Source of the DNA: Actinomycetota bacterium
Lineage (GTDB): Bacteria; Actinomycetota; CALGFH01
NCBI GenBank assembly: GCA_035535495.1
Contig: DATLQA010000233.1
Span: 10,734 to 74,733, forward strand
Reading direction: 5' to 3'
DNA: 64,000 bases
Of this stretch, positions 10,501 to 31,267 are shown piece after piece. Below the pieces are notes generated by a model. That model was not told the origin of the DNA and did not search any database. It saw only the letters and a list, made by a program, of their open reading frames with translations. Numbering within the stretch: the stretch's first letter is position 1; every line of letters begins with the position of its first letter. Position numbers and translations under genes: made by a program.

Positions 10501-11373
10501 GTGCGCGTGCTCGTCACCGGAGCCAACGGCCAGGTCGGCCAGGAGCTGCTGGCCGCGTTCGGCGACGCCAAGGAGGTCCACGCGTTCAGCCACGCCGAGC
10601 TGGACGTGGGCAGCTGGCCGGCGGTGGCGTCGACGGTCGCCGAGCTCGAGCCCGACCTGGTCTGCAACGCGGCCGCGTACACCGACGTCGACGGCTGCGA
10701 GGGCGACCCGGACCGGGCCTTCCGCGACAACTGCCTCGCCCCGCGCCACCTCGCCCTTGCCTGCCGCGAGGTCGACGCCGAGCTGGTCCACATCTCCACC
10801 GACTACGTCTTCGAGGGCGGCGCCCGCGCGTCGCGCCCCGACGGCTACGGCGAGTACGACCCGACCGTGCCGGCCAGCGTCTACGGGCGCTCCAAGCTGG
10901 CCGGCGAGCAGGCGATCCGCGACCTCTGGAGCCGCCACTACCTGGTCCGCACCGCCTGGGTGTACGGCGCCGGCCGCAACTTCGTCGGCACCATCCTGCG
11001 GCTGGCGTCCGAGCGCCCCACCCTGCGGGTGGTAGACGACCAGCTCGGCAGCCCCACCTGGTCGCGCGACCTGGCGAGCGGCATCCGGGTGCTGGTCCGC
11101 ACCGGCCAGCACGGCACCTACCACCTCACCGGCGGCGGGTTCTGCTCCTGGTACGAGCTGGCACGCGCCGTGCTGGCCGGCACCGGCCAGGACCCGGACC
11201 GGGTGGAGCCGTGCTCGAGCGACGAGTTCCCCAGGCCGGCGCGGCGGCCCGCCTGGTCGGTGCTGGACAACCGGCTCGCCCGCCTGGTCGGCGTCCCGCC
11301 GCTCCGCCCCTGGCAGCAGGCCCTCCAGGCCTACCTCGAGGAGCGTGCGACACCACCCGTCGCGGTGGGCTGA
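10501..11373 (+). CDS. rmlD: dTDP-4-dehydrorhamnose reductase
   Basis: Rossmann [14 protein letters not shown]. The catalytic YGRSK motif and the STDYVF motif are present. GTG start with an AACGGAGG ribosome-binding site. Confidence 0.85.
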
Positions 11374-11415: not shown

Positions 11416-12222
11416 CTACTCCTGGGGGTCGTCGGTGTGTCTGGCCACCACGTAGACCTCGGCCGGCTGATGCATGGCGTCGGTCAGCGCGCGGTGGGCG
11501 AGCAGGATCCGCCGCGCCGAGTCCTGCGTCTCCGCCAGCCGGTCGGCCACCGTCTTGAGCACGTGGACGAGGTTGTGGGCGAACGCCGGGTCGTGTGCCT
11601 CCCCGGCCGGTCGGCCGCGTTCGTGGTGCTCGAGGCCGCGGCCGAGCTTGGTGAGCGCCTGGCCGATGGCGTCGGCGAGGTCGGGATGCACGGTCGGCTC
11701 GTCAGCGCGCAGCCAGGCCGGCGGGTCCGGGCGGGTCGCCGGGTTGCCGCCGGAATCCTCCACCTGGAAACCCGCCCGCCGGCTCAGGTAGGCGAGCAGC
11801 GAGAGGTCGTAGAGCCGGACCAGGGCCGGGTCGCGCCAGGCGTCAGCGGCCAGCACGGCGTAGGAGGCAGGGTTGGCCACCGACGCCACCAGCCGGCCGC
11901 CGGGAGCGAGCACGCGGCCGACGCCGGCCAGCAGCCGCAGGGCCTCTGGTGCCTGCAGCCGGTCGAGCAGGCGGCCGCAGAACACCGCGCGGTACGGGCC
12001 GGGCGGCGGCTCGGCGTCCAGGTGACCGAACGCCCGCGCCGCCTCCTTGCCGGCCGGCCCTGTCCTGATCCCGCTGGCCTCGACCCCGTCGGCGGCCAGC
12101 AGCTCGACCAGCTCCTGCTGGTCGGGACCGAGCGCGAGCACCGGGCCACGGCCGCGCAGCAGCGGCAGGTAGTGCCGCAGGCGGTCGCTCGCTGGCACGG
12201 CCGGCGGCAGCGCGAGGCTCAC
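11416..12222 (-). CDS. Class I methyltransferase-fold protein with a degenerate SAM-binding motif I. It is a paralogue of the methyltransferase at 24250-25101.
   Basis: Shares NPASYAVL..WRDP..VRLYD and a C-terminal HDP..H.L.HVLK...DRL.ETQ region with the paralogue. It has VLALGPDQQ where the paralogue has VVDLGCGRG. Confidence 0.7.
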   Translation of the reverse strand: MSLALPPAVPASDRLRHYLPLLRGRGPVLALGPDQQELVELLAADGVEASGIRTGPAGKEAARAFGHLDAEPPPGPYRAVFCGRLLDRLQAPEALRLLAGVGRVLAPGGRLVASVANPASYAVLAADAWRDPALVRLYDLSLLAYLSRRAGFQVEDSGGNPATRPDPPAWLRADEPTVHPDLADAIGQALTKLGRGLEHHERGRPAGEAHDPAFAHNLVHVLKTVADRLAETQDSARRILLAHRALTDAMHQPAEVYVVARHTDDPQE

Positions 12223-12246: not shown

Positions 12247-12900
12247 CTACTGCCAGTGCTCGATGGTCCTGACCGGCTTGGCCGGGACGCCCGCGACGAG
12301 GGTGGAGGGGGGGACGTCGCGGGTGACGACCGACCCGGCGGCAACGACGGCGCCGTCACCGATGGTCACCCCCTTGAGCACGAGCGCGTTGGTCCCGACC
12401 CAGACACGGTCGCCGATCACGATCGGCGCGGTGTGGGGCTGTGGCAGCCCGTCCACGTAGACGGCGTGGAAGTCGGTGTCCAGGATCTGCACGTTCCAGG
12501 AGATGTTGCAACCCGAACCAATGGTCACGCCGCTGGCGACCAGGATCTTGGTGAAGCCGTTGACCATCGTCTGGTGGCCGATCTCGAGCTGGCCGGCGTC
12601 GACCACGATCCGGGAGCCGCGGTGCAGGTTGACCTGCCCGTCGACCACGAACTGGGCGCCGGGGCGGATCCGGATCACGGTCTCGTCCCTGACGGTGGTC
12701 AGGCCGAAGCTGCCGATGCCGATGCGCAGGTGCCCGTTGTTGCGGAACACCAGCCGGCTGGGGTCGTCGATCACGGTGGCGGACCCGATCGACACCGGCA
12801 GGCGGTGGCGCAGCTCGTAGCGGAGCCGCCCCCGCCAGGCGGCCACGGGCGACACCTCCTGCTCCCGCCAAAGCTGCCGGTCGATCGCCTCTCGGAACAT
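12247..12900 (-). CDS. Hexapeptide-repeat (left-handed beta-helix) O-acetyltransferase, of the WbbJ / maltose O-acetyltransferase type
   Basis: Repeated [LIV]G-x4 hexapeptides and a C-terminal VGTNALVLKGVTIGDGAVVAAGSVVTRDVP. Start ATG (revcomp at 12898-12900) with an AAAGAGGAG ribosome-binding site. Confidence 0.8.
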   Translation of the reverse strand: MFREAIDRQLWREQEVSPVAAWRGRLRYELRHRLPVSIGSATVIDDPSRLVFRNNGHLRIGIGSFGLTTVRDETVIRIRPGAQFVVDGQVNLHRGSRIVVDAGQLEIGHQTMVNGFTKILVASGVTIGSGCNISWNVQILDTDFHAVYVDGLPQPHTAPIVIGDRVWVGTNALVLKGVTIGDGAVVAAGSVVTRDVPPSTLVAGVPAKPVRTIEHWQ

Positions 12901-13095: not shown

Positions 13096-15171
13096 ATGGC
13101 GGTCGGAGAGGTTCGTGACATCGACGCCGTGCCGGGCACGACCGGCGAGGCCCAAGCGGAACGCAGGGAGGCGCCCGCGCCCCTGTACGCGGCCGAGGTC
13201 GCCGTCGGCGGGGCCGCGCTCGCGCTCGCCCTGCTCGCCTGGGCCGGCCTCGCGCTCGCCCACGCCCGCCACTACAGCCTCGCCGCCGCCGCCGGCCTCA
13301 CCCTGGTGGCGCTGGCCGTGGTCGTCCTGCTCGCCCGGGCCGGCGCGTCACGGCGTCCCGGTGGCCGCCCGCGGCTGGCGCTCGACCCGCCCGGGCTGGT
13401 CATGGTGGGCGTGCTCGCGCTGATCACCGCGGTCCTGCTCTTCCCCGGCTTCCCCTACGGCGTCGGCGACAAGGACCCTGGCGGCTACGTGTCGCAGGGC
13501 ATCCTCATGGCCCGCACCGGCGACTGGGCGATGAACGACCCGGTGCTCGACAAGGCCCGCATCCCCAGGGTCGCGCTCGCCTCGCCCGGCGCGCGGCTGC
13601 CCGGCCAGTGGATCGAGCACGCCCAGGTCCCGCGCCGCACCATCCCGCAGTTCTACCACCTCTGGTCCGCCGCTCTGGCCAGCGCGTTCGCCGCCGGCGG
13701 CTACACCGGCCTGGCGAACCTCAACCCGCTCTGCGGGGTGCTCGCGGCCTGCCTCGCCGCCCTCGCCGTCCGCAGGGTGTTCGGGCTGGTCGCCGGCTCG
13801 CTGGCCGGCCTGCTGCTGGCCGCCAACATGCTCGAGGTCTGGCAGGCCAAGTACCTGACCAGTGAGGTGTTCACCCAGGTCCTGGTGCTCGGGTCGATCC
13901 TCGGGGTGGTGCTCGCCCTGCGGACCGGGTGGCGCCTGCCCGCCGGCGTGGCCGGGCTGCTGCTCGGGCTCGGCTTCCTCGCCAGGGCCGACGGCCTGGT
14001 CCTGATCCTGATCGCGGTGGGGATCGGCTGCGTGCTGATCGCCACCGGCCGTTTCGACGCCCGCGCCGGCTGGTTCGCCGCCGGCCTCACGCTCACCCTG
14101 CCCCACGGCTTCCTGCAGGCCTACCACTTCGCCAGGCTCTACACCATCTCGGTGAAGCTGCCGGGGGCGACCACGGTGCTCGTGGCCATGGCGGTGCCGC
14201 TCGCCCTGGCGCTCGCGCTGCGCCGCTTCGCCCGGCCGCTGGGGGAGTGGGTGGCCCGCCTGATCGCCGAGCCGCGCGTCCAGCTCCTGGCCGGCGCGGC
14301 CATCGTCGGCCTGGCCGTGCTGCTGCTGGCGGTCGGGTTCCTGCGCCCAAGGCTCTTCGGGATCGACTACTTCAACTACAACGGCCGGGTCATCCGCAGC
14401 TACGACGAGCAGGCCCTCCGCCGCCTGTCCTGGTTCTTCACCCTGCCCGGGTTCGCGCTGATGGTGGCCGGGCTGGCCTACCTCGCCCTGCGCCGCTGGT
14501 CGGCGGCCGCCTGGGCGCTGGTCCTTCCCGGGTTGCTGCTGTTCCCGCTGTACGCCTACGAGGCGCAGAACTCGAGCCGGCTGATGTGGTGGAACCGCCG
14601 CTTCGTGCCGGTGGTGGTGCCGGCGGTGATCATCCTGATCGCGGTGGCCCTGGCCGTCGCCGTGGCCTGGACGGGACGCTGGCGCTGGCCCGTGCGCCTG
14701 GCCGGGCTGGCCGCCACCGGCGCGCTGCTGGCGGTGTTCCTCGGCCAGTCCCTGCCGCTCCGCCACCACCACGAGTTCGCCGGGTCGTTCGAGATCAGCC
14801 AGCGCGTCAGCCGCCTCGCCGGCGACCGCCAGGGCGTGTACCTGTGGCAGTCCCCGGGCGGGCGGCCGGTCTCGGCGACCTCGCTGTTCGCCTCGCCGTT
14901 GTGGCTGCAGGAGGGCGAGATCAGCGCGCTGCTGCCGAGGCGGCCCGACCCCGGCTACGTGCGCTCGTTCGTGCGCGGGTTCCCCGGGCAGCCGGTGTTC
15001 GTGGTGAGCGCGGGCGGCCGGGCCCTCGCCGGCTACGAGCGCGTCGGCCTCCGCCCGGTCGACCGGGTCCGCGCGACCCTGCCGTTCTGGGCCGAGAGCG
15101 ACACCAGCCGGCCGTCCAGGGCCGGCGCGGTCCCGGTCGACTTCACCGTCTGGCGGGTCGCCGGCACGTAG
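13096..15171 (+). CDS. GT-C-fold polytopic membrane glycosyltransferase (putative; probably uses a polyprenol-phosphate-sugar donor). Paralogue 1, 691 aa.
   Basis: About 14 TM helices. The first extracytoplasmic loop carries FPGFPYGVGDKDPGGYV. Conserved MWWNRRFVP and DYFNYNGRVIRSYDEQ blocks are shared with the paralogue at 25299-27374. Confidence 0.7.
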   Translation: MAVGEVRDIDAVPGTTGEAQAERREAPAPLYAAEVAVGGAALALALLAWAGLALAHARHYSLAAAAGLTLVALAVVVLLARAGASRRPGGRPRLALDPPGLVMVGVLALITAVLLFPGFPYGVGDKDPGGYVSQGILMARTGDWAMNDPVLDKARIPRVALASPGARLPGQWIEHAQVPRRTIPQFYHLWSAALASAFAAGGYTGLANLNPLCGVLAACLAALAVRRVFGLVAGSLAGLLLAANMLEVWQAKYLTSEVFTQVLVLGSILGVVLALRTGWRLPAGVAGLLLGLGFLARADGLVLILIAVGIGCVLIATGRFDARAGWFAAGLTLTLPHGFLQAYHFARLYTISVKLPGATTVLVAMAVPLALALALRRFARPLGEWVARLIAEPRVQLLAGAAIVGLAVLLLAVGFLRPRLFGIDYFNYNGRVIRSYDEQALRRLSWFFTLPGFALMVAGLAYLALRRWSAAAWALVLPGLLLFPLYAYEAQNSSRLMWWNRRFVPVVVPAVIILIAVALAVAVAWTGRWRWPVRLAGLAATGALLAVFLGQSLPLRHHHEFAGSFEISQRVSRLAGDRQGVYLWQSPGGRPVSATSLFASPLWLQEGEISALLPRRPDPGYVRSFVRGFPGQPVFVVSAGGRALAGYERVGLRPVDRVRATLPFWAESDTSRPSRAGAVPVDFTVWRVAGT

Positions 15172-18809: not shown

Positions 18810-19703
18810 TCACGACGCCGGCTTGACCGCTTCCCAGGTGAGGAACTGGTAGCTGGGGAAGACCCCGTCCCGCTGCGCCAGCTGGTCGTCGGCGACCACC
18901 ACCAGGTCCTCGGCCTTGGCCGCGGCGACCAGGGCGGCATGGTCGAACTCGGGGAACTCGAAGAAGCGGTCCCAGTGGGCGTCGCCCGCGACCACGCGGC
19001 GGCGGAAGTCCTCGGTGCACAGCACCACCGCCTGGAAGCCGTGCCGGCGCAGCCGTTCGGTCAGATCCATGCCGAAGCGCCAGAAGACCGGGGTGTTGTC
19101 GCCGTGGAACTCCGGCTCCGGCGGCGGCGCCGTGGTCGCCTGCCCGACCGGCACCTGCAGCAGCATGCGGCCGCCGGGGCTGAGCACCCGGTAGATCTCG
19201 GACAGGGCGGCCTCGGTGTCGGGCACGTGCTCCAGCACGTGCGCGGTGAGCAGCACGTCGATCGAGTCGTCGGGCAGGTCGAGGCGTTGCAGGTCGAGCT
19301 TGACGCTCGCCTTGTGCGCCCGCTGGTCGTAGTCGCTGGCCAGGTAGTGCACCCGGCGCGCCATCGTGTCCCGGTAGCCGGCGCCAAGGCGCGGGCTGGT
19401 CTCCAGCACCCGCAGCCGGCGCTCAAGCGGCACGCGCTGGTACAGGCACAGGTACATGAAGCGGTCGCGGCCGACCGCCTGGCAGTTCGGGCACTGGGCG
19501 GCCTCGGAATGCGGCGCGCCGGGGAACTGCGGTCCGCGCCAGTCGCAGAGGATGCACCAGGCGCCCTCGGCGGGGATGTCCTGTGCCCTGATCGGTGCCC
19601 ATGGCCGCAGCCGCGGGCCGTCGCCGCGCTGGCCGCCCAGCGCGTGCCGGGCCGAGCGGGCCAGCTCCCTGGTCTTGTTCCTGAGCGCGGTGGCGTACGA
19701 CAT
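18810..19703 (-). CDS. SAM-dependent methyltransferase (Methyltransf_11) with an N-terminal Cys4 zinc-ribbon
   Basis: CILCDW...CPNC ribbon. Motif II DVLLTAHVLEHV. ATG with a CAGGAG ribosome-binding site. Confidence 0.8.
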   Translation of the reverse strand: MSYATALRNKTRELARSARHALGGQRGDGPRLRPWAPIRAQDIPAEGAWCILCDWRGPQFPGAPHSEAAQCPNCQAVGRDRFMYLCLYQRVPLERRLRVLETSPRLGAGYRDTMARRVHYLASDYDQRAHKASVKLDLQRLDLPDDSIDVLLTAHVLEHVPDTEAALSEIYRVLSPGGRMLLQVPVGQATTAPPPEPEFHGDNTPVFWRFGMDLTERLRRHGFQAVVLCTEDFRRRVVAGDAHWDRFFEFPEFDHAALVAAAKAEDLVVVADDQLAQRDGVFPSYQFLTWEAVKPAS

Positions 19704-22346: not shown

Positions 22347-22646
22347 TTGCTGCGGACCAGGGCCGAGACGGGCACGCCCGTCCAGGCCCTGGTCCGCAGC
22401 ACCGGCGACGCCAAGAGCCTGCTGGTCCGCTCTGCCACCGGCTACTGGATCCGCTTCCCAGTCGGCGACCTGGACCGCCTGCTGCTGGCCACCCGAGTCG
22501 GCGGGGAGCCGCTGGCCGCCAGGCACGGCTTCCCGCTCCGCCTGGTCGCCCCTGGCCGGCGCGGCTTCTGGTGGGTGAAGTGGGTCGACCGCGTCGAGCT
22601 GCACGACACGCCGTGGTGGTGGCAACCACCGTTCCCGGTGACCTAG
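22347..22646 (+). pseudogene. C-terminal fragment of a sulfite-oxidase-family molybdopterin oxidoreductase (MsrP/YedY-like). The N-terminal about 130-150 aa are missing.
   Basis: EPLAARHGFPLRLVAPGRRGFWWVKWVDRVEL matches the C-terminal end of the Moco domain. No upstream coding sequence is left between it and the GNAT gene. Confidence 0.5.
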
Positions 22647-24199
22647 GAGCCGGTCCCGGCCAGGCCGGCGCGGGTGGCGATCTCATGCCAGCGCCGACGG
22701 AAGGCGTCCTCGGAGAAGGCCTGGGCGCGCTCGACCGCGGCCGCGCCGAGGCGGCGGCAGTGGTCGGGGTCGGCGGCCAGCTCGCGGGTGCGGGCCTCCA
22801 GCTCTTCGAGCGTCGACCAGCGGTAGCCGTCGACCCCCTGGCGGACGATCTCGCGCTGGCCGGCCTGGTCGATCACCACCGGGACGCAGCCGGCCGCCAT
22901 CGCCTCGACGGTGGTCATGCCGAAGTGCTCGAACACCCACGGCTGCTGCTCGGGGTCCTCGCCGAGGCCGGTCGCCGCCCAGAAGATCGAGCTGGTGGCG
23001 AACAGCTCGTCGACCTTGGCCCTTGGCGCGTTGGGGTGGATCTCCACCGGCAGGCCGGCGGCGGCCTCGCGCAGCGCGGCCAGGTAGGGGCGCTGGGACG
23101 GCTCGCAGCCGCCGACCACGTGCAGCGTCCAGGAGTCCAGGCCGCCGTTGCGGACCATCTGGCCGAAGGCCTGCACCTGTTCCAGCTGCTTCTTGTTGTG
23201 GCCGAGGCCGGGGGCGAAGAAGCGTCCGACCGTGAGGATCTTGCGGTCCTTGCTGCCGGGTTGGAGCTCGTGCACGCGGATCGGCGGGAACAGGACCTCG
23301 CTGTCGACCCCCCAGAGCCGCTTGATCCACGAGCGGGTGTACTCCGAGTTGGCCATCACCACCTGGTAGTGGTCGAGGAAGGACAGGTCGGTGGGGTCGC
23401 GCAGCAGCCAGGGGAACCGCTCGGCGACCCGCTGGCGCAGGTCCCGCTGGGACCCGGCCATGCGCAGGCGGCTCACCGCCACGCCCAGGTCGCGGTCGTC
23501 GCCGCCGCCCGGCTTGAACGTCTCGGTGCGCAGCACCAGCTCGGCCGGCTGCGGCGAGGCCGGCAGGCGCACCTCGTGCCCCCGGAACCGGTCCGGCTGG
23601 GCGACCAGCCGTGCCAGCTCGCGGCCGTCCTCGTCGCGGAAGGTCAGCTCGGCCGGTCCGGGCGCACCGGGCCGGCCGAGGTCGAAGGTGAGCACCCGCT
23701 CCCCCTCGCTGCCCGGGACCTGCAGGAGCGAGCGGTCGCTGGTCCACGCCCACGAGCGGCGCCGCCCGCCCTCAGGGGGAAACCAGCCCAGCCCGTAGCC
23801 GATGTCCGGCCGTACCTGGCGGACGTACGGGCCGGCCAGGCGGACCAGGCGCCGCCGCCACGCCGCCATGTCGTGGTCGAACGGGGTGGGGAACCAGCAC
23901 AGGTAGAGGCTGTGGGCCGCCCGCGCCTTGATGCGGCTCATGTAGGAGGCGTTGACGAACAGGTCGTACTCGGACGACACCCGGGCCAGGTCGGTCTCGC
24001 CCCGGTCGGAGACCACCCGCAGCGCCACCTTGGCCAGGTCCAGTCCGAGATGGTCGGCGAGGACGTCCTTGCCGACGTCCTCGTGGCCGATGAGGTCGAC
24101 CTCGTGGCCGTCCTCGGCGAGGACCTGGGCGAGCATGCTGGAGTGGCGCTCACCGCCACCCATCGAATGCAGGAACCGGTTGTAGACGGCGGCCTTCAA
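22643..24199 (-). CDS. GT4 family glycosyltransferase (large form, with an inserted domain)
   Basis: C-terminal GT4 signature (FEHFGMTTVEAMAAGCVPVV) and an N-terminal Rossmann half. Proposed TTG start with an AGGGAG ribosome-binding site; an upstream ATG at 24298 is the alternative. Confidence 0.7.
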   Translation of the reverse strand: MKAAVYNRFLHSMGGGERHSSMLAQVLAEDGHEVDLIGHEDVGKDVLADHLGLDLAKVALRVVSDRGETDLARVSSEYDLFVNASYMSRIKARAAHSLYLCWFPTPFDHDMAAWRRRLVRLAGPYVRQVRPDIGYGLGWFPPEGGRRRSWAWTSDRSLLQVPGSEGERVLTFDLGRPGAPGPAELTFRDEDGRELARLVAQPDRFRGHEVRLPASPQPAELVLRTETFKPGGGDDRDLGVAVSRLRMAGSQRDLRQRVAERFPWLLRDPTDLSFLDHYQVVMANSEYTRSWIKRLWGVDSEVLFPPIRVHELQPGSKDRKILTVGRFFAPGLGHNKKQLEQVQAFGQMVRNGGLDSWTLHVVGGCEPSQRPYLAALREAAAGLPVEIHPNAPRAKVDELFATSSIFWAATGLGEDPEQQPWVFEHFGMTTVEAMAAGCVPVVIDQAGQREIVRQGVDGYRWSTLEELEARTRELAADPDHCRRLGAAAVERAQAFSEDAFRRRWHEIATRAGLAGTGS

Positions 24200-24249
24200 G
24201 CGTCGGACACTCCCTGTGGCGTGGTGGGCGTCGGCGCGGGCCGCGCCGG

Positions 24250-25101
24250 TCAGGCGTGCGCGCGCACGAAGATCTCGTTCGGCTGGTACATCCCCCATAC
24301 TAGGTTGTCGTGCGCGATCCGGAGCTCCCGCACCGCCTCCTGCGTCTCCCGCAGCCGGTCGCAGAGCACCTTGGCGACGTGGGCGAGCTGGTAGGCCCAC
24401 GAAGGGTCGTGCGACTCCCGCCAGCGGCCGCGGCCGTCGTGATGCTGCAGCGCCATGGCGACCTGGCTGGTGGCGGCGTCGAGGACGTCGTCAAGTCCCG
24501 GGTGGACGATCGCCTCCGGCGCCAGGAACCCCGGCGGCGGCCCCGGATGGTTCTGCGGGTTCGGCCCTGACTCCTCGACCTCGAGGCCGGCCTCACGGCA
24601 GAGGAACTCCAGCAGCGGGGCGTCGTAGAAGCGCACGTGGGTCGGGTCCCGCCAGAAGTCGTGGGTGAGCACCGCGTAACAGGCCGGGTTGGGGGTGGCG
24701 GCCACGAACTTGCCGCCAGGCACCAGCACCTTGCGGACGCCGTCGAGCATGCGCACGACCTGCTCCGGCGTGAGGTGCTCGACGAAGTGGGCGCAGAAGA
24801 CCCCGCCGAACGGCCCTGGGGTCGGGTCGGCGTGCAGGTACTCGATGGCGTCGTCGAGGAGCACGTCGAGCCCGCGGCCGCGGGCCTGCTCCACCATGCC
24901 CTCGTCCGAGTCGACGCCGACGGCCTTGATGCCCGCGTCGTGCAGCATGGTGACGAAGTCGCCGCGGCCGCAGCCAAGGTCGACCACTGGCGCCGCCTGG
25001 TCGGCGAACATCGGCACGTAGAAGCTCTGCACGGCACGCGCGTGCTCGCCGTGGGGGTCGAAGTCCATGTAGGCGTAGTAGTCGCTTTCGAGTCGGGTCA
25101 T
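24250..25101 (-). CDS. Class I SAM-dependent methyltransferase with a C-terminal helical extension. Paralogue of 11416-12222.
   Basis: Intact motif I VVDLGCGRGDF, post-I acid VGVDSD, motif II FGGVFCAHFVEHL. Confidence 0.8.
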   Translation of the reverse strand: MTRLESDYYAYMDFDPHGEHARAVQSFYVPMFADQAAPVVDLGCGRGDFVTMLHDAGIKAVGVDSDEGMVEQARGRGLDVLLDDAIEYLHADPTPGPFGGVFCAHFVEHLTPEQVVRMLDGVRKVLVPGGKFVAATPNPACYAVLTHDFWRDPTHVRFYDAPLLEFLCREAGLEVEESGPNPQNHPGPPPGFLAPEAIVHPGLDDVLDAATSQVAMALQHHDGRGRWRESHDPSWAYQLAHVAKVLCDRLRETQEAVRELRIAHDNLVWGMYQPNEIFVRAHA

Positions 25102-25298
25102 GGTCGACCTCCTTGCGCCGCGACCACGCTGCCGCGGTGCCGCCTCCCCCCGTACGACATGGCGCCCAGGACCGAGGGCACCCGAATGCTACCGACCGGC
25201 GCGTCCGCAGGGCGACTCCTGGGCTCGCCGGCCGGCGCCTGGCCGGCTCCAAGCGGGCCGGGGCAGGACGCCGGTGGCCGGGTAGACTGCGGCGCGAC

Positions 25299-27374
25299 AT
25301 GCGGACCCGCTCCACCTCCCCGCCTGCCGCCGAGCCGGAGGCCCTGGATGCGGCCGCGCCGGCCGGCGCCGCGATCGAGCTGCGACCGGCCGAGGCGCTG
25401 TGGCTGGGCGGCACCGCCGTGATCGCCGCGGTCTGCTGGGCGTCCCTGGCCGCCGCGCACCTCGCTGTGCTCTCGGTCGGCTCGGTGCTCGGCCTGGCGG
25501 CGGTGATGCTCGCGGCGCTCGCCGTCCCCGTCTGGCTGTCCCTGCGGCGCGGAGCCCGCCGCCTGGTCCTCGGCGGCCGCCTCGGCTGGGTCGAGGTGGC
25601 GGCGCTGGCGGCCGGCGCCGGCCTGCTGCTCCTGCTCTACCTGCCCGGCTTCCCGTACGGCGTGGCCGACAAGGACCCCGGCGGGTACGTGCAGCACGGC
25701 TTCTCGATCGCCCGCACCGGCGACTTCCGCATCCACGACGAGGCCCTGGCCAAGCTGCCGGACATGACCCGGTACGGCGCCGGCATCCGCTTCCCCGGCA
25801 TCTGGATCAGCGACGCCGCCCGCGCCGAGGTGGTGCCGCAGTTCTACCACCTGTACCCGGCCACCCTCGGCTTCCTCGGCCGGCTCTCGGGCCAGACCGC
25901 CATGATGAGCCTGAACGCGCTGCTCGCGGTGGTGTCCGCCGCCGGGGTGTACCTGGTGGGGCGGCGACTGGCCGGGCCGGTCGCCGGGGCGGTGGCCGCC
26001 GCCGTGCTCGCCCTCGACATGGTCCAGGTCTGGCAGGCCAAGTACCCGACCACCGAGATCTCCACCAAGCTCTTCTTCGTGGTCACCATCCTCGGCCTGG
26101 TGGTCGCCGCCGAGACCCGCTGGTGGCCGCCGGCGGTGCTGGCCGGCGCGGCGCTCGGGGTCGCCTGGCTGGACCGGCCCGACACGCTGCTGCCGGTGCT
26201 GATCGCTCTCGGCGTGCTCGCCGCCGCGGTGGTGCTCGGGCGCTTCGGGCGGCTCCACGCCGCGTTCGCGCTCGGCCTGGCGGTGGTCGCCCCCCACGCC
26301 ATCTGGCAGGCGCTCGGCCCTGCCGGCAGGTACAGCCAGGCCGCCGGCGGCATCACCAGCGGCCGGCTCGCCCTGGCCGCCGCCGCGCTCGCCGCCGGCA
26401 CGGTGGTCGGCCGGGTGCTGTGGCGGGGGCCGCTCGGCCGGTGGATCGAGCGGTTGGCGGGCCGGCTGGTCGCCGACCCGCGCCGCCGCTTGGCGCTCAA
26501 GGCGCTGCTCCCGGCCGGCCTGGTCCTGCTCGCCCTGGTCGCGTGGTTCCGGCCGCAGCTCTTCGGCGCCGACTACTTCGACTACAACGGCCGCCTGATC
26601 CGCAGCTACGACGAGCAGAACCTGCGCCGCCTCGCCTGGTTCGTGACCGTGCCGGGGATCGCCGCCACCCTGGTCGGCTTCGCGGTGGTGGCGCTGCGCC
26701 GCTGGCGGGCGGCGGTCTGGATCGCGGTCGGGCCGGCGGTGGTGCTGCTCATCCTCTACCTCTACCAGGCGGTCAACTCGACCCGGCTGATGTGGTGGAG
26801 CCGGCGCTACGTGCCCAGCGGCCTGCTGGTGTTCGCACTGCTGATCGGGATCGCCTGCGCCGCGGCGTGGGCGTGGCGGGGGAGAGGACGACTGCTCGCG
26901 CTGGTCGCCGCCGTGGCGGTGGCCGGGGTGGTGGTGGGGACCGGGCTGGTGCAGAGCCTGCCGCTCGCCAGGCACCGGGAGTTCGGCGGGTCGTTCGCCG
27001 CCTCGGCCCGGATCGCCGACGCCGCGCACGGCCGCCAGGGGGTGTTCGTCTGGGGGCCGCGCCGCACCTACTACGACACCATGCCGCTGTTCGCCGCGCC
27101 GGTGTGGCTGCAACGCGACCAGCTCTCGGTGATCCTGCCGCCGAACGGCACCCGCGCCGACCTGGAGCGCATCCAACGTGCCTTCCCCGGCCAGCCGCTG
27201 TTCCTGGTCACCGGCTCGCTGGGCCTGCCGCCGACCCTCCGCCAGGCCGGCCTGCGCAAGGTCGACGGCTTCCGGGTGGCGATGCCGTTCTGGCAGGAGT
27301 CCGACACCCAGCGGCCCTCCCACAACGTCGGCGTCGGCGCCAGGATCGAGATCTGGTCGCTCGGCGGGCCATAG
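25299..27374 (+). CDS. GT-C-fold polytopic membrane glycosyltransferase (putative). Paralogue 2, 691 aa.
   Basis: LPGFPYGVADKDPGGYV, MWWSRRYVP and DYFDYNGRLIRSYDEQ blocks. With the ATG at 25299 the product length is the same as paralogue 1 (691 aa). Confidence 0.7.
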   Translation: MRTRSTSPPAAEPEALDAAAPAGAAIELRPAEALWLGGTAVIAAVCWASLAAAHLAVLSVGSVLGLAAVMLAALAVPVWLSLRRGARRLVLGGRLGWVEVAALAAGAGLLLLLYLPGFPYGVADKDPGGYVQHGFSIARTGDFRIHDEALAKLPDMTRYGAGIRFPGIWISDAARAEVVPQFYHLYPATLGFLGRLSGQTAMMSLNALLAVVSAAGVYLVGRRLAGPVAGAVAAAVLALDMVQVWQAKYPTTEISTKLFFVVTILGLVVAAETRWWPPAVLAGAALGVAWLDRPDTLLPVLIALGVLAAAVVLGRFGRLHAAFALGLAVVAPHAIWQALGPAGRYSQAAGGITSGRLALAAAALAAGTVVGRVLWRGPLGRWIERLAGRLVADPRRRLALKALLPAGLVLLALVAWFRPQLFGADYFDYNGRLIRSYDEQNLRRLAWFVTVPGIAATLVGFAVVALRRWRAAVWIAVGPAVVLLILYLYQAVNSTRLMWWSRRYVPSGLLVFALLIGIACAAAWAWRGRGRLLALVAAVAVAGVVVGTGLVQSLPLARHREFGGSFAASARIADAAHGRQGVFVWGPRRTYYDTMPLFAAPVWLQRDQLSVILPPNGTRADLERIQRAFPGQPLFLVTGSLGLPPTLRQAGLRKVDGFRVAMPFWQESDTQRPSHNVGVGARIEIWSLGGP

Positions 27375-27406: not shown

Positions 27407-29044
27407 TCAGCCCCTGGCGCCGGTCAGCAGCAGCAGCGGCAGCCGGCCGCTGTTGGCCCTGCGGGCGGTCGGGGCCGCCTTGCCCCAGACCGGCCCGCCG
27501 TCGCCGGCCTCGGCGAGCACCAGCCACACCCGACCCGAGCGGGTCCGGGCGGTGGCCTCGCGGACGGCCGCCTCCGCGCCCGGCTGCCCGCGCTGGTGGG
27601 TGACCACCAGCTCCGGCCGGTCCGGGTAGTCCACCTGGAACAGCACGGCCGTGTCGCTCTGGGTGGGCGTGAAGGTGGGCCGGTCCGGCCAGTAGTAGGC
27701 GAACGCGAACGAGGCGTTGCGGCCGACCAGCACCACGTCGCCCGGCCGCCGGTTCTCGAGCACGAAGGCGACCTGCTGGCGCAGGGTGCTGCCCGGCATC
27801 GGCCTGCGGACCGCCTCGCGGCTCGCCGGCACCAGCAGCGCGGCCGCCAGCCCGGCGGCGGCCAGCCCCACCGGGACCGTCGCCGGCCGCCGGAACGACC
27901 AGGCGACCAGCGCGCCGACGCCGAGCCCGGCGCAGACGGTGAACAGCACGGTGACGAACAGGCTGGTCCGCTCGTCCAGGAACGGGTACCGGTGGGCCGC
28001 GCCCGCGACCACCAGCTCGGCCAGCAGGACCGGCACCGCCAGCGCGGTCGCCGGCAGGCGCCCGCGCCACAGCGCCGCCAGGCCGCCCAGCGCCAGCACG
28101 ACGGCGAGCGCCCAGGGCCCGAACCCGGCTCGGCCGAGCGTCTCGGCCAGACGGGTGGCGACGAACGAGACCGCCCGGCCGGGCCCCTCGGACACCGGGA
28201 CGAAGGCGTACCCCCAGTACCGCTGCATGGCCGCGTTGTCGCCCACCGACAGGAACACCAGGAAGACGGCCGCCTCGACGGCACCGGCGACGAGCCCGAG
28301 CCCGAGGACCTGGCGCAGCCGCCCCCAGCGCCGCTCCGCCAGGCAGCGCAGCGCGAGCGCGCCGAACACCGCCGCCGAGGCGAACACGGCCGCGTGGCTG
28401 ACCAGCACCGCCGCCGCGCAGGCCACGCACAGGACCAGCAGCCGCCAGGGGCCGCGGCGCTCCGGCCCGGTCCAGTCCGCCTCGACGCGGGCACCGAGCC
28501 AGAGCAGCAGCAGGGTCACGAACACGTCGCCGGTGTACTGCTTGAGGTCGTCGTTGGCGATGGCGCTCGGGGCGATCGCCGCGGCCACGCCGGCGGCGAC
28601 CGCCTGGACCCGTCCCAGCCGCCGGCCGAGCAGGTAGGCGGGCACCACCGCCGCCACCGCGAACGCGATCGGCAGCAGCCGCAGCCGCTCGGGCGGCCCG
28701 ATCTCCGGGACCAGGCGCAGCAGCGACGTCCAGCCGATCGGCGTGGACGAGGTCAGCATGCGCAGCTGGTGGAACGGGGCGCGGACCGAGTCGGCGACCC
28801 AGCCCTCGTCCAGCCAGAACGAGTGCGACAGCAGGTAGCCGAGCCGGCGGCTCACCGTCGCCAGGACGAGCAGGACGGCGACCAGGCCGAGCTCGACCGC
28901 CGGGTGGCGGGCCAGCCGCCGCCAGCCCCCGGCGCGCGGCTGGCGCGGCGCGGCCGGTCGGGCGGGCGCCGCGCCGTGCCGCTCGACCGGCGGCCTCCTC
29001 TGGTCCACCGCCGCCCGTGGCCCTGGGTGCTGGCTGTCGGTCAT
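27407..29044 (-). CDS. Polytopic membrane protein, GT-C / ArnT-PMT-like (putative glycosyltransferase)
   Basis: 545 aa with 11 or more TM helices. A DEGW motif sits in the first loop. The soluble C-terminal domain is probably periplasmic. The rest of the 1267-aa ORF is a GC artefact. Confidence 0.55.
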   Translation of the reverse strand: MTDSQHPGPRAAVDQRRPPVERHGAAPARPAAPRQPRAGGWRRLARHPAVELGLVAVLLVLATVSRRLGYLLSHSFWLDEGWVADSVRAPFHQLRMLTSSTPIGWTSLLRLVPEIGPPERLRLLPIAFAVAAVVPAYLLGRRLGRVQAVAAGVAAAIAPSAIANDDLKQYTGDVFVTLLLLWLGARVEADWTGPERRGPWRLLVLCVACAAAVLVSHAAVFASAAVFGALALRCLAERRWGRLRQVLGLGLVAGAVEAAVFLVFLSVGDNAAMQRYWGYAFVPVSEGPGRAVSFVATRLAETLGRAGFGPWALAVVLALGGLAALWRGRLPATALAVPVLLAELVVAGAAHRYPFLDERTSLFVTVLFTVCAGLGVGALVAWSFRRPATVPVGLAAAGLAAALLVPASREAVRRPMPGSTLRQQVAFVLENRRPGDVVLVGRNASFAFAYYWPDRPTFTPTQSDTAVLFQVDYPDRPELVVTHQRGQPGAEAAVREATARTRSGRVWLVLAEAGDGGPVWGKAAPTARRANSGRLPLLLLTGARG

Positions 29045-29215: not shown

Positions 29216-30076
29216 ATGGCGAGTGCGGCCGACGCCCGCGCCCTTGCCCAGACCCGGGTCCGCTGGGAACTGCTGGCGAACCTGGTGCGCAAGGACCTCA
29301 AGGTCAAATACAAGAACTCGGCCCTCGGCTTCGCCTGGTCGCTGGCCAACCCGCTGCTCTACCTGGCGGTGTTCTCGATCGTGTTCAGCGGGTTCCTGCT
29401 GCGCGGCGGCGTCCCCAGGTTCGCGGTCTACCTGATGTCCGGGCTGCTGGTCTGGAACTTCTTCGCCACCGCCACGATGGGCGCCACCGGCGCCGTCACC
29501 GGCAGCGCCAACCTGGTCAAGAAGGTCCGCTTCCCGCGCATCGTGCTGCCGCTGGCCTCGGTCGGCTTCGCCGGCGTGCACTTCGTGCTCCAGCTCGGGG
29601 TGCTGTTCGTGGTCCTGGTGCCGCTGCACCGGACCGCGTTCGGGGCGCAACTCTGGCTGGCCGTGCCCGCGCTCGCGGTGGCGGTGGCCTTCACCGTGGG
29701 GATGAGCCTGCTCGCCTCCAGCCTCAACGTCCGCTTCCGCGACGTCGAGCACCTGCTGGAGGTCGCCCTGCTCGCCTGGTTCTGGCTCACCCCGATCGTC
29801 TACCCGGTCGCGCTGGTCAAGGAGCGGCTGGGCGAGCTGTTCTGGCTCTACATGGCCAACCCGATGGCCACCGTGGTGGTGGCGATGCAGCGGGCGATCT
29901 ACGCCGACGCCGCCCCGATCGGCAAGGACGGCGTGGCCGTGCCCGTCCTGGCCGACGGCGGCTACGCCTTCTACCTCAGGTGGCTCGGCATCACCGGGCT
30001 GGTGTCGCTGGGGCTGATCGCGATCGGGTTGTTCACCTTCCGCCGGCTGGAAGCCGACTTCGCCGAGGAGCTGTAG
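29216..30076 (+). CDS. wzm: ABC-2 type polysaccharide export permease (Wzm)
   Basis: Six TM helices. ABC-2 signature KDLKVKYKNSALGFAWSLANP. GAGGAGAGG ribosome-binding site. Confidence 0.85.
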   Translation: MASAADARALAQTRVRWELLANLVRKDLKVKYKNSALGFAWSLANPLLYLAVFSIVFSGFLLRGGVPRFAVYLMSGLLVWNFFATATMGATGAVTGSANLVKKVRFPRIVLPLASVGFAGVHFVLQLGVLFVVLVPLHRTAFGAQLWLAVPALAVAVAFTVGMSLLASSLNVRFRDVEHLLEVALLAWFWLTPIVYPVALVKERLGELFWLYMANPMATVVVAMQRAIYADAAPIGKDGVAVPVLADGGYAFYLRWLGITGLVSLGLIAIGLFTFRRLEADFAEEL

Positions 30077-30079
30077 CCG

Positions 30080-31267
30080 GTGGGCGGCGAGGCGATCACG
30101 GCCCGCGGGGTCGGCAAGCGGTTCCAGCTCCACCACAAGCGGGCCACCAGCCTGAAGGAGCGGCTGCTGCTGGCCCGCTCCTCCTCGTCGGAGGACTTCT
30201 GGGCCCTGCGCGACGTCGACCTGGCCGTCGGCCAGGCGGAGACGGTCGGCCTGATCGGGCCCAACGGCTCCGGCAAGTCCACCCTGCTCAAGGTGCTGGC
30301 CGGCATCCTCGCGCCGACCAAGGGCGAGGTCGAGGTCCGCGGCCGCATCGCTTCGCTGCTGGAGCTGGGCGCCGGCTTCAGCGGCGAGCTGACCGGCCGC
30401 GAGAACGTCTACCTGAACGCCTCCATCCTCGGCCTGACCCGGCGCGAGATCGACCGGCAGTTCGACAGCATCGTGGACTTCGCCGAGCTGGAACCGTTCA
30501 TCGACAACCAGGTCAAGCACTACTCGTCGGGCATGTACGTCCGGCTCGGCTTCGCCGTGGCGGCACACGTCGATCCGGACGTGCTCCTGGTCGACGAGGT
30601 GCTGGCCGTCGGCGACGAGGCCTTCGCCGCCAAGTGCCTGGCCAAGGTGGCCGAGTTCCAGGCCCAGGGCCGCACCATCCTGTTCGTCACCCACGGCCTC
30701 GACCAGGTCAGCCAGGTCTGCGACCGGGCGGTCGTGCTCAACCAGGGGCGGGTGCTGTTCGACGGCGAACCCGCCGAGGCGGTCTCCAAGCTCCGCGCCT
30801 TCCTCGGCACCTCCGAGGACCCGGCCGCCGGGCTCGGCGGCGACGGGCTGCTGGAGATCGTCGACGCGCACGTGATCGACCCGGCCGCCGGCGGCGAGCA
30901 GCTCGACTTCCACGTCGGCGACAAGCTCGCCATCGACGTGATCGTCAAGGGCAGGGCGGAGGCCCCGGCGGCCGACCTCCGCCTGGTGGTGACCGGCCCG
31001 GCCGACTACCCGATGTTCCTGATGGAGAGCCCGCCTGGGGTGGTGCCGGCCGGCGGGGCGGTGCACACCGTCCGCTTCCTCCTCCCCGCCTTCCCCTCCC
31101 TGCAGGGGCTGTTCTCGCTGTCGGTGGCGCTGATCCGCTCGGGCGGCAAGGACGTGCTCGACGCCCGCCGCTTCGGCGAGCGGATCCGCGTGTACGGCCC
31201 CGCCACCCACGGCTTCCAGCTGGTCGACTTCGAGACCGAGCTGCTCCCGCCCGAGGACCGGCCATGA
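30080..31267 (+). CDS. wzt: ABC transporter ATP-binding protein (Wzt) with a C-terminal extension of about 150 aa, in the position of a terminal-modification-recognising carbohydrate-binding domain
   Basis: Walker A GPNGSGKST, signature YSSGMYVRL, Walker B LLVDEVL. The C-terminal extension (residues about 250-395) is annotated by analogy to Wzt_C. GTG start 4 nt after the wzm stop. Confidence 0.85.
   Translation: MGGEAITARGVGKRFQLHHKRATSLKERLLLARSSSSEDFWALRDVDLAVGQAETVGLIGPNGSGKSTLLKVLAGILAPTKGEVEVRGRIASLLELGAGFSGELTGRENVYLNASILGLTRREIDRQFDSIVDFAELEPFIDNQVKHYSSGMYVRLGFAVAAHVDPDVLLVDEVLAVGDEAFAAKCLAKVAEFQAQGRTILFVTHGLDQVSQVCDRAVVLNQGRVLFDGEPAEAVSKLRAFLGTSEDPAAGLGGDGLLEIVDAHVIDPAAGGEQLDFHVGDKLAIDVIVKGRAEAPAADLRLVVTGPADYPMFLMESPPGVVPAGGAVHTVRFLLPAFPSLQGLFSLSVALIRSGGKDVLDARRFGERIRVYGPATHGFQLVDFETELLPPEDRP

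Follow-up and report, generated by a model that had tools for sequence, protein, structure and literature searches.

A probable pseudo-methyltransferase in a cell-envelope glycopolymer region of an uncultured actinobacterium

Results

Two methyltransferase-fold paralogues in the window

We have analysed a 64-kb stretch of DNA from an Actinomycetota bacterium (contig DATLQA010000233.1; G+C content about 74%), hereafter the window, and within it two paralogous genes, named A and B, that code for proteins with the fold of the class I S-adenosylmethionine (SAM)-dependent methyltransferases.

11416..12222, minus strand: gene A, 268 amino acids (aa), a class I methyltransferase-fold protein without the SAM-binding motifs (probable pseudo-methyltransferase).
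24250..25101, minus strand: gene B, 283 aa, the canonical paralogue, with motif I, the beta-2 Asp and beta-3 all intact.

The two products are 42% identical over 255 residues (BLASTP, E = 2e-65), and the G+C content at third codon positions (GC3) is 0.93 in A and 0.94 in B, as expected for real genes in this genome. In Pfam, six models pass for B (Methyltransf_25, _23, _11, _12, _31 and MetW); for A only Methyltransf_23 passes, and narrowly (29.9 versus a cut-off of 27 bits), while the scan of A against NCBIfam gave nothing meaningful, the best match having E = 0.27. Gene A starts with a GTG codon, and a weak AGGA located 8–11 nt upstream is a plausible ribosome-binding site. Since an identical A protein is encoded on five independent metagenome contigs, the gene is not an assembly artefact. 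A frameshift or assembly error masking a GxGxG motif in another frame was also considered, and is ruled out by these five contigs and by the sharing of the sequence among 17 orthologue clusters; the open reading frame (ORF) that overlaps A in another frame contains no GxGxG. The active-type paralogue coexists with A in the window, and the same A/B pairing is found in the metagenome-assembled genome (MAG) DASUZB.

Loss of the cofactor-binding motifs in A

The sequence-only reading that drew our attention to this locus had described in B a canonical motif I (VVDLGCGRGDF) and a post-I acidic residue (VGVDSD), and had reported that A reads VLALGPDQQEL at motif I, so that GxGxG is absent, and has no clear acidic residue at the end of beta-2. 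Our alignment of A with B bears out each of these observations, the end of beta-2 in A reading SGIRTG. The further claim that A aligns across the remaining fold was too generous, since about ten residues comprising beta-3 are deleted and some 20 more residues that are invariant in B are replaced, many of them polar. The features concerned are the following.

12109..12144, minus strand: beta-1 and the degenerate motif I, residues 27-38 (PVLALGPDQQEL); Gly1 is kept, Gly2 is replaced by Asp34, Gly3 by Gln36 and the acidic residue ahead of the motif by Ala30.
12046..12081, minus strand: beta-2 and the post-I loop, residues 48-59 (EASGIRTGPAGK); the ribose-binding Asp is replaced by Arg53.
12022..12036, minus strand: site of a deletion of about ten residues, seen in 17/17 A-clade sequences, that takes out beta-3 and motif III (a residue of which contacts adenine in functional class I methyltransferases) and with them an Asp conserved in every B-clade sequence.
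11806..11874, minus strand: family signature NPxxYAVL..W.DP..R.YD, residues 117-139, whose backbone motif is kept in A.

The B sequence that lies opposite the deletion is GLDVLLDDAIEY (beta-3/motif III), and within the 117-139 signature the B-invariant Cys, His, Asp, Phe, Thr and His are replaced in A. The comparison was extended to an alignment of 17 A-clade and about 115 B-clade sequences, in which we scored the positions at least 90% conserved in B and changed in A. The motif-I loss is not due to chance, since the Gly2 and Gly3 columns are 100% glycine in the B clade, whereas in the A clade glycine is found in 1/17 (D15/G1/S1) and 0/17 (E9/R5/Q3) sequences, respectively. The acidic residue preceding motif I in the B clade becomes Val or Ala in the A clade; the beta-2 Asp, present in 98% of the B clade, becomes Arg, Gly, Lys or Ser; the second Asp, two residues past it, becomes Gly; and the G..V...D of beta-3 is deleted throughout the A clade. 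Also replaced are the B-clade residues H84, E87, H88, T115, P116, C120, H126, D127, F128, T133, H134, N163, H164, W214, Y251 and N254, the specific replacements in A including H84R, T115V/P116A, C120S, F128A, H134L, Y251H and N254A. Within the A clade, 23 positions are conserved and carry a residue other than that of the B consensus. In all, A has lost four separate cofactor-binding determinants and, with them, many family-invariant polar residues.

No glycine-rich string of A lies at the position of the SAM loop, and a functional GxG elsewhere in the protein was not found: the GRG at residues 23-25 stands ahead of beta-1, on the wrong side of the sheet, and the GIGPG that follows beta-2 in 12/17 orthologues is likewise outside the SAM-loop position. 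These observations bear on the possibility that A is still an active SAM-dependent methyltransferase, whose cofactor would be bound in a remodelled, non-canonical pocket. The predicted retention of the fold, the passing of the Methyltransf_23 threshold, the conservation of Gly1 and of the lid motif NP..W.DP..R.YD, and the new Gly-rich loop past beta-2 in most orthologues would fit this possibility, as would the fact that, as far as we know, some bona fide class I methyltransferases do without GxGxG. However, the new loop is missing from the A of the window, which reads GIRTG, the four determinants are lost together and along with beta-3, and the positions that they once occupied vary within the clade (D/G/S, H/Q/R, E/R/Q). 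We consider an active A very unlikely.

Orthologues and polarity of the loss

Seventeen clusters, 60–91% identical to A and all of them metagenomic, were obtained from the database, and every one has the degenerate loop (LGPDQQ, LGSDHE, LGGDHE or LGADHE) and the same deletion; the motif-I loss is thus conserved in the orthologues. With B as the query, more than 1,200 relatives were obtained, of which the best 120 almost always read LGCGRGE at the loop. A different situation is found in cluster P0019 (locus L021), whose protein is 52% identical to A, retains LGCGPG, GVEPDE and beta-3, and is a positional orthologue of A, its gene having the same acetyltransferase, methyltransferase and RmlD order. 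The sister group of the A clade in a neighbour-joining tree consists of P0019 and P0020, in both of which LGCGPG and GVEPDE persist; the A clade and this sister group together are in turn sister to the B clade. In an exhaustive profile search, which gave about 15 full-length clusters at 50% identity, the motifs are missing in the A clade alone. Since P0019 and all the other full-length clusters keep GxGxG and the acidic residue, the loss in the A clade is derived.

P0019 and P0020 are already without the B-invariant beta-3 Asp, H84, H88, P116, C120, H134 and N254, yet they keep the motifs, and therefore the decay looks stepwise, putative catalytic or acceptor residues having gone first and the cofactor site later. 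P0019, P0020 and P0148 (L021, 2548-3528) are positional orthologues of A in which GxGxG and the acidic residue of beta-2 survive, and they may represent intermediates that bind SAM but are altered in catalysis. Independent partial degeneration was also observed inside the B clade, in P0021 and P0022 (L020, 6604-7401), which have LGWGGG or LGGGRS at motif I, a deletion of about 19 residues (post-I helix and beta-3) and longer branches; the L020 gene adjoins genes for an LCP ligase and for TylF/CmcI-type methyltransferases.

Predicted structure

The AlphaFold2 models of A and B are confident, with a predicted local distance difference test score (pLDDT) of 84.5 and 87.5, respectively. In the B model the seven canonical strands are present, with beta-3 at residues 80-82. 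The A model has beta-1 (28-31), beta-2 (49-51), no beta-3, beta-4 (77-83), then beta-5, beta-6 and a C-terminal beta-7 (255-262), and its residues 51-60 are the block of lowest pLDDT in the N-terminal domain. The fold of A is therefore predicted to be retained except for beta-3. A long helical element stands out in the model:

11473..11685, minus strand: helical hairpin between beta-6 and beta-7, residues 180-250 (predicted helices 180-201 and 212-250).

Since the hairpin sits ahead of beta-7, what appears to be a C-terminal extension is an insertion between beta-6 and beta-7.

Selection on A

The reading frame of A is unbroken by frameshift or stop codon in every full-length orthologue cluster; there are 16 of these, P0001-P0016, which reach down to 60% identity with a dS of about 0.5 for each pair. 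The ratio of nonsynonymous to synonymous substitution (dN/dS, or omega) was estimated by the Nei-Gojobori method, with bootstrap limits, between A and four orthologous loci, and gave 0.31, 0.38, 0.53 and 0.68; the bootstrap upper limits (0.48–0.89) are all below 1. In each comparison A has the highest dN among the genes of the neighbourhood; between the window and MAG DASUZB, A has a dN of 0.18 and an omega of 0.38, and B a dN of 0.05 and an omega of 0.12. By region, the values are as follows.

Former SAM subdomain, A residues 27-76: dN/dS 0.60–0.95, pooled 0.78; same region in B 0.16.
Linker, hairpin and beta-7 of A: dN/dS 0.21–0.52, pooled 0.39; same region in B 0.07.
N-terminal helices of A: pooled dN/dS 0.29; same region in B 0.16.

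The hairpin is among the most constrained parts of A, behind the short N-terminal helices. Column conservation, relative to B, is lower in A at motif I, post-I, beta-4 and beta-5, and in the hairpin it is 1.2–2.1-fold above that of the B clade, depending on the sub-segment. The constraint on A is relaxed and redistributed, and the old SAM subdomain is near-neutral, which is unexpected for a working pocket and argues further against an active enzyme.

Is A simply a gene without function, decaying towards a pseudogene, whose frame happens to be unbroken so far? That A is the gene with the highest dN in every genome pair, with omega reaching about 0.8 in the N-terminal subdomain, could be taken in this sense. 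Against it stand the intact frame in all 16 clusters and in the five identical contigs, the bootstrap limits, the clear constraint on the hairpin, the N-terminal helices and beta-7, the 23 A-specific conserved positions, the high GC3 and the plausible ribosome-binding site. Our estimates indicate that A is not a pseudogene and is maintained by purifying selection, and mere decay seems to us quite unlikely. The sequence-only reading, which saw in A the typical signature of a dead methyltransferase that has been retained, is supported by the conserved and derived losses, by the intact ORF under selection and by the predicted retention of the fold apart from beta-3.

The same 23 positions, which include Asp34 in the old loop and His251, may be read in another way, namely that A has gained a different catalysis or ligand binding on the methyltransferase scaffold, as a SAM-independent enzyme or as a reader of the glycan terminus that would use the lid motif. 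The retention of the lid signature, and the presence among the structural neighbours of SpnF and SpnL, which have the methyltransferase fold and a different chemistry, would be in line with this. However, no new polar or catalytic constellation is seen, most of the 23 replacements being small or apolar (Ala, Leu, Val, Gly), and no part of the protein is less constrained than the old active-site region. A new activity is thus an unlikely explanation as well.

Genomic neighbourhood of A and B

The window is a cell-envelope glycopolymer region, with genes for an LCP ligase, a sugar nucleotidyltransferase, RmlD, glycosyltransferases of families GT2 and GT4, three GT-C-like membrane proteins, SpoIID, an amidase and an ABC (ATP-binding cassette) transporter of the Wzm/Wzt type. 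The genes around A and B that concern us here are:

10501..11373, plus strand: RmlD (dTDP-4-dehydrorhamnose reductase, 290 aa; RmlD_sub_bind, E = 1.6e-94), convergent with A.
12247..12900, minus strand: hexapeptide-repeat acetyltransferase (217 aa; Pfam Hexapep), on the strand of A and 24 nt upstream of it.
13096..15171, plus strand: polytopic membrane protein of 691 aa, divergent from the acetyltransferase-A pair, with no Pfam PMT_2 match.
22643..24400, minus strand: GT4 glycosyltransferase (Pfam; longest ORF), directly downstream of B.
25113..27374, plus strand: PMT_2/GT-C-like membrane protein (Pfam PF13231), divergent from B.
29216..31267, plus strand: ABC-2 permease (Wzm-like) and ABC ATPase (Wzt-like).

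The arrangement around A is the same in the 8/8 A-lineage loci: a divergent membrane protein of about 690 aa, the acetyltransferase gene followed by the methyltransferase-like gene at a distance of 6–24 nt, and a convergent RmlD gene. The hexapeptide acetyltransferase is always paired with the A-lineage genes, and it is probably co-transcribed with A; both it and the GT-C-like gene are invariant neighbours of this lineage. In the B lineage the invariant neighbour is the GT4 gene, a large one that follows the B-type gene in about ten genome loci, and the idea that the GT-C neighbour is a conserved partner of the whole family is unsupported there. The 691-aa protein is a paralogue (41–44% identity) of the protein encoded at 25113-27374, both having GFPYGV(G/A)DKDPGGY, and as each of them adjoins one methyltransferase gene divergently, an old duplication of a methyltransferase plus GT-C module is suggested. 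A third large polytopic membrane protein (27407-29014, minus strand) has no Pfam match.

Taken at its longest, the GT4 ORF shares 151 nt with the 3' end of B. Since the GT4 matches of loci L013, L009 and L012 begin 7–40 nt after the end of the methyltransferase gene, the true start of the GT4 gene in the window probably lies close to 24220. A short ORF of high GC3 (22347-22646, plus strand, 99 aa), with a GNAT gene on one side and the GT4 gene on the other, matches positions 78-164 of 169 only of a Pfam molybdopterin-binding oxidoreductase model, and may be a fragment or remnant.

In E. coli O9a the gene order is wzm-wzt-wbdD-wbdA. A similar order is found in a Mycobacteriales MAG (L018, JBHELW010000099, 2173-9506), where a GT-C-like gene on the minus strand is followed by wzm, wzt, a B-type methyltransferase, GT2 and GT4 with overlapping stop and start codons, which suggests by analogy that the B lineage may comprise chain-terminating or capping methyltransferases. 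Fusions among the relatives (P0163, methyltransferase-GT2, 618 aa; P0217, methyltransferase-GT4, 814 aa; P0292, GT4...methyltransferase, 1324 aa) give Rosetta-stone support to a functional link between the methyltransferase family and the glycan polymerases, and in distant full-length members the stretch from beta-6 to beta-7 is longer and resembles a coiled coil. Coiled coils are a characteristic feature of the glycan terminators in ABC-transporter-dependent pathways, and one such terminator, WbdD, recruits the polymerase WbdA (PMC11231755, PMC5082667). From the GT4 linkage, the wzm-wzt-methyltransferase-GT2-GT4 order, the fusions and the coiled-coil-like element, we infer that B may be a glycan-modifying methyltransferase, possibly a chain terminator.

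The Wzt-like ATPase (30080-31267, plus strand) has a C-terminal extension of about 145 residues, and a similar extension is present in the L018 Wzt. This extension could be a glycan-cap-binding module; it has no Pfam match of any kind, and the Pfam scan of the protein gave no Wzt_C match even at E <= 1, so cap-dependent export stays speculative.

In the product of a third methyltransferase-like gene of the window (18810-19703, minus strand, 297 aa), motif I is non-canonical, reading VLETSPRLG, and the N-terminal part carries a CxxC...CxxC pair resembling a zinc ribbon; the Pfam matches are mainly C-terminal (Methyltransf_23 from residue 93, Methyltransf_11 from residue 127). The gene is well conserved (omega 0.12–0.42), and its product is therefore probably active despite the odd loop.

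Discussion

Our results lead us to propose that A, which has very probably lost SAM binding and catalysis, is a pseudo-methyltransferase retained by purifying selection for a non-catalytic role, likely that of a scaffold or adaptor. We think this the probable explanation of the data, though not a secure one: from the comparisons above we infer that A does not bind SAM, that it serves as a scaffold and which protein it works with. According to this proposal, A would represent an old paralogous lineage of a glycan-associated family of class I SAM-dependent methyltransferases. The lineage would first have lost family-invariant residues that were probably catalytic or involved in acceptor binding, a stage that may still be seen in P0019 and P0020, and the clade of the window would next have lost cofactor binding, as Gly2 and Gly3 of motif I, the acidic residue of beta-2 and the whole of beta-3, its Asp included, disappeared. 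The resulting protein would still fold in a Rossmann-like manner, minus the edge strand beta-3 and with the long hairpin between beta-6 and beta-7. We suppose that the ancestral protein had a second, structural role, which would now be borne by the hairpin, the N-terminal helices and the surface of the lid. Most likely, A would serve in the cytoplasm as scaffold or adaptor while a rhamnose-containing polysaccharide of the cell wall is assembled, and it may do so together with the hexapeptide acetyltransferase, which is probably co-transcribed, and perhaps with paralogue B as well. The acetyltransferase is the most obvious candidate partner, and a heterodimer with B is the alternative candidate.

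Several points weigh against this proposal. The evidence for the loss of SAM binding comes from sequence comparison. Class I methyltransferases with a non-canonical motif I exist, CheR and COMT among them, and therefore motif I alone is no proof; the gene at 18810-19703 is a caution in the same direction from within the window. The dN/dS values of up to 0.68, in the fastest-evolving gene of the neighbourhood, would also fit a gene that is sliding towards loss. The evidence for the acetyltransferase and the GT-C-like protein, which the sequence-only reading gave as examples of a partner, is one of synteny (strictly conserved at eight loci), and the co-occurrence of A and B could be checked in two genomes only. 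Finally, WbdD has a long C-terminal ruler, whereas the hairpin of A, between beta-6 and beta-7, is far shorter (22 + 39 residues).

How does A compare with known systems? Pseudoenzymes are well known from eukaryotic signalling and from the methylation of RNA and DNA, and METTL14, Trm6 and DNMT3L are dead methyltransferase paralogues, each partnered with an active enzyme. A pseudo-methyltransferase domain without a SAM motif, whose role is purely structural, is found in animal fatty-acid synthase and in some polyketide synthases; the fatty-acid synthase domain is part of a megasynthase, while A is a protein on its own, into which a helical hairpin is inserted. To our knowledge, few pseudoenzymes have been described in bacterial envelope biogenesis, and our literature search on bacterial pseudo-methyltransferases found nothing specific. 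The TbPRMT1 prozyme (bioRxiv 10.1101/776112) and DRM3 (PMC2965745) are, as A appears to be, dead paralogues of an active class I methyltransferase, in which the fold is kept and is under selection, with the active paralogue in the same genome. They are however eukaryotic, with proven heteromeric partners, whereas A belongs to a cell-wall glycan pathway of an uncultured actinobacterium and its partner is only a candidate; unlike them, A has a whole strand, beta-3, deleted. The structural-genomics entry PDB 3DLI, a protein from Archaeoglobus fulgidus that the entry names only as a methyltransferase, has intact the SAM motifs that are missing in A.

The comparison with the WbdD-type terminators is one of analogy and not of membership. 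They resemble the B lineage in the wzm-wzt-methyltransferase-glycosyltransferase position, in the pairing or fusion with GT4 or GT2, and in the helical, coiled-coil-like element, and the non-catalytic job of WbdD, the recruitment of the polymerase, is of a kind that could outlast catalysis. Direct kinship with WbdD was rejected at the sequence level, as no WbdD chain is found among the 59 PDB matches of the family profile at E <= 1e-3. A itself differs from a WbdD-type terminator in having neither the SAM motifs nor, in Pfam, a kinase domain, and it adjoins an acetyltransferase gene and not a GT4 gene, about 17 kb from wzm/wzt.

We also put forward a further-reaching idea, tentative and, in our own estimate, doubtful. 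In the living intermediates of the A lineage we might see how a glycan chain-terminating methyltransferase was turned, step by step, into a purely architectural subunit, by the loss of the catalytic residues and then of the cofactor pocket and beta-3. The hairpin would have been kept because it already served, independently of catalysis, to organise the polymerase, the acetyltransferase or the export machinery of an actinobacterial cell-wall polysaccharide, and an acetyl mark set by the acetyltransferase encoded next to A may have replaced the methyl cap. P0021 and P0022 would then show that the family is prone to such transitions.

A dead methyltransferase paralogue is a known kind of protein; notable here are the uncharacterised actinobacterial glycan-assembly family in which it occurs, the deleted strand and the apparent intermediates. 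The impact of the finding is moderate, because the A lineage is known from uncultured soil Actinomycetes only and the concept is an established one. Should A be a non-catalytic subunit, the methyltransferases of ABC-transporter-dependent glycan assembly would have a structural role separable from capping, as the work on WbdD already hints. In that case, B, P0019 and A would also form a natural series for the decay of a cofactor site with the interaction surface preserved. For annotation, the finding is a warning that "SAM-dependent methyltransferase" would be the wrong functional label for the proteins of the A clade.

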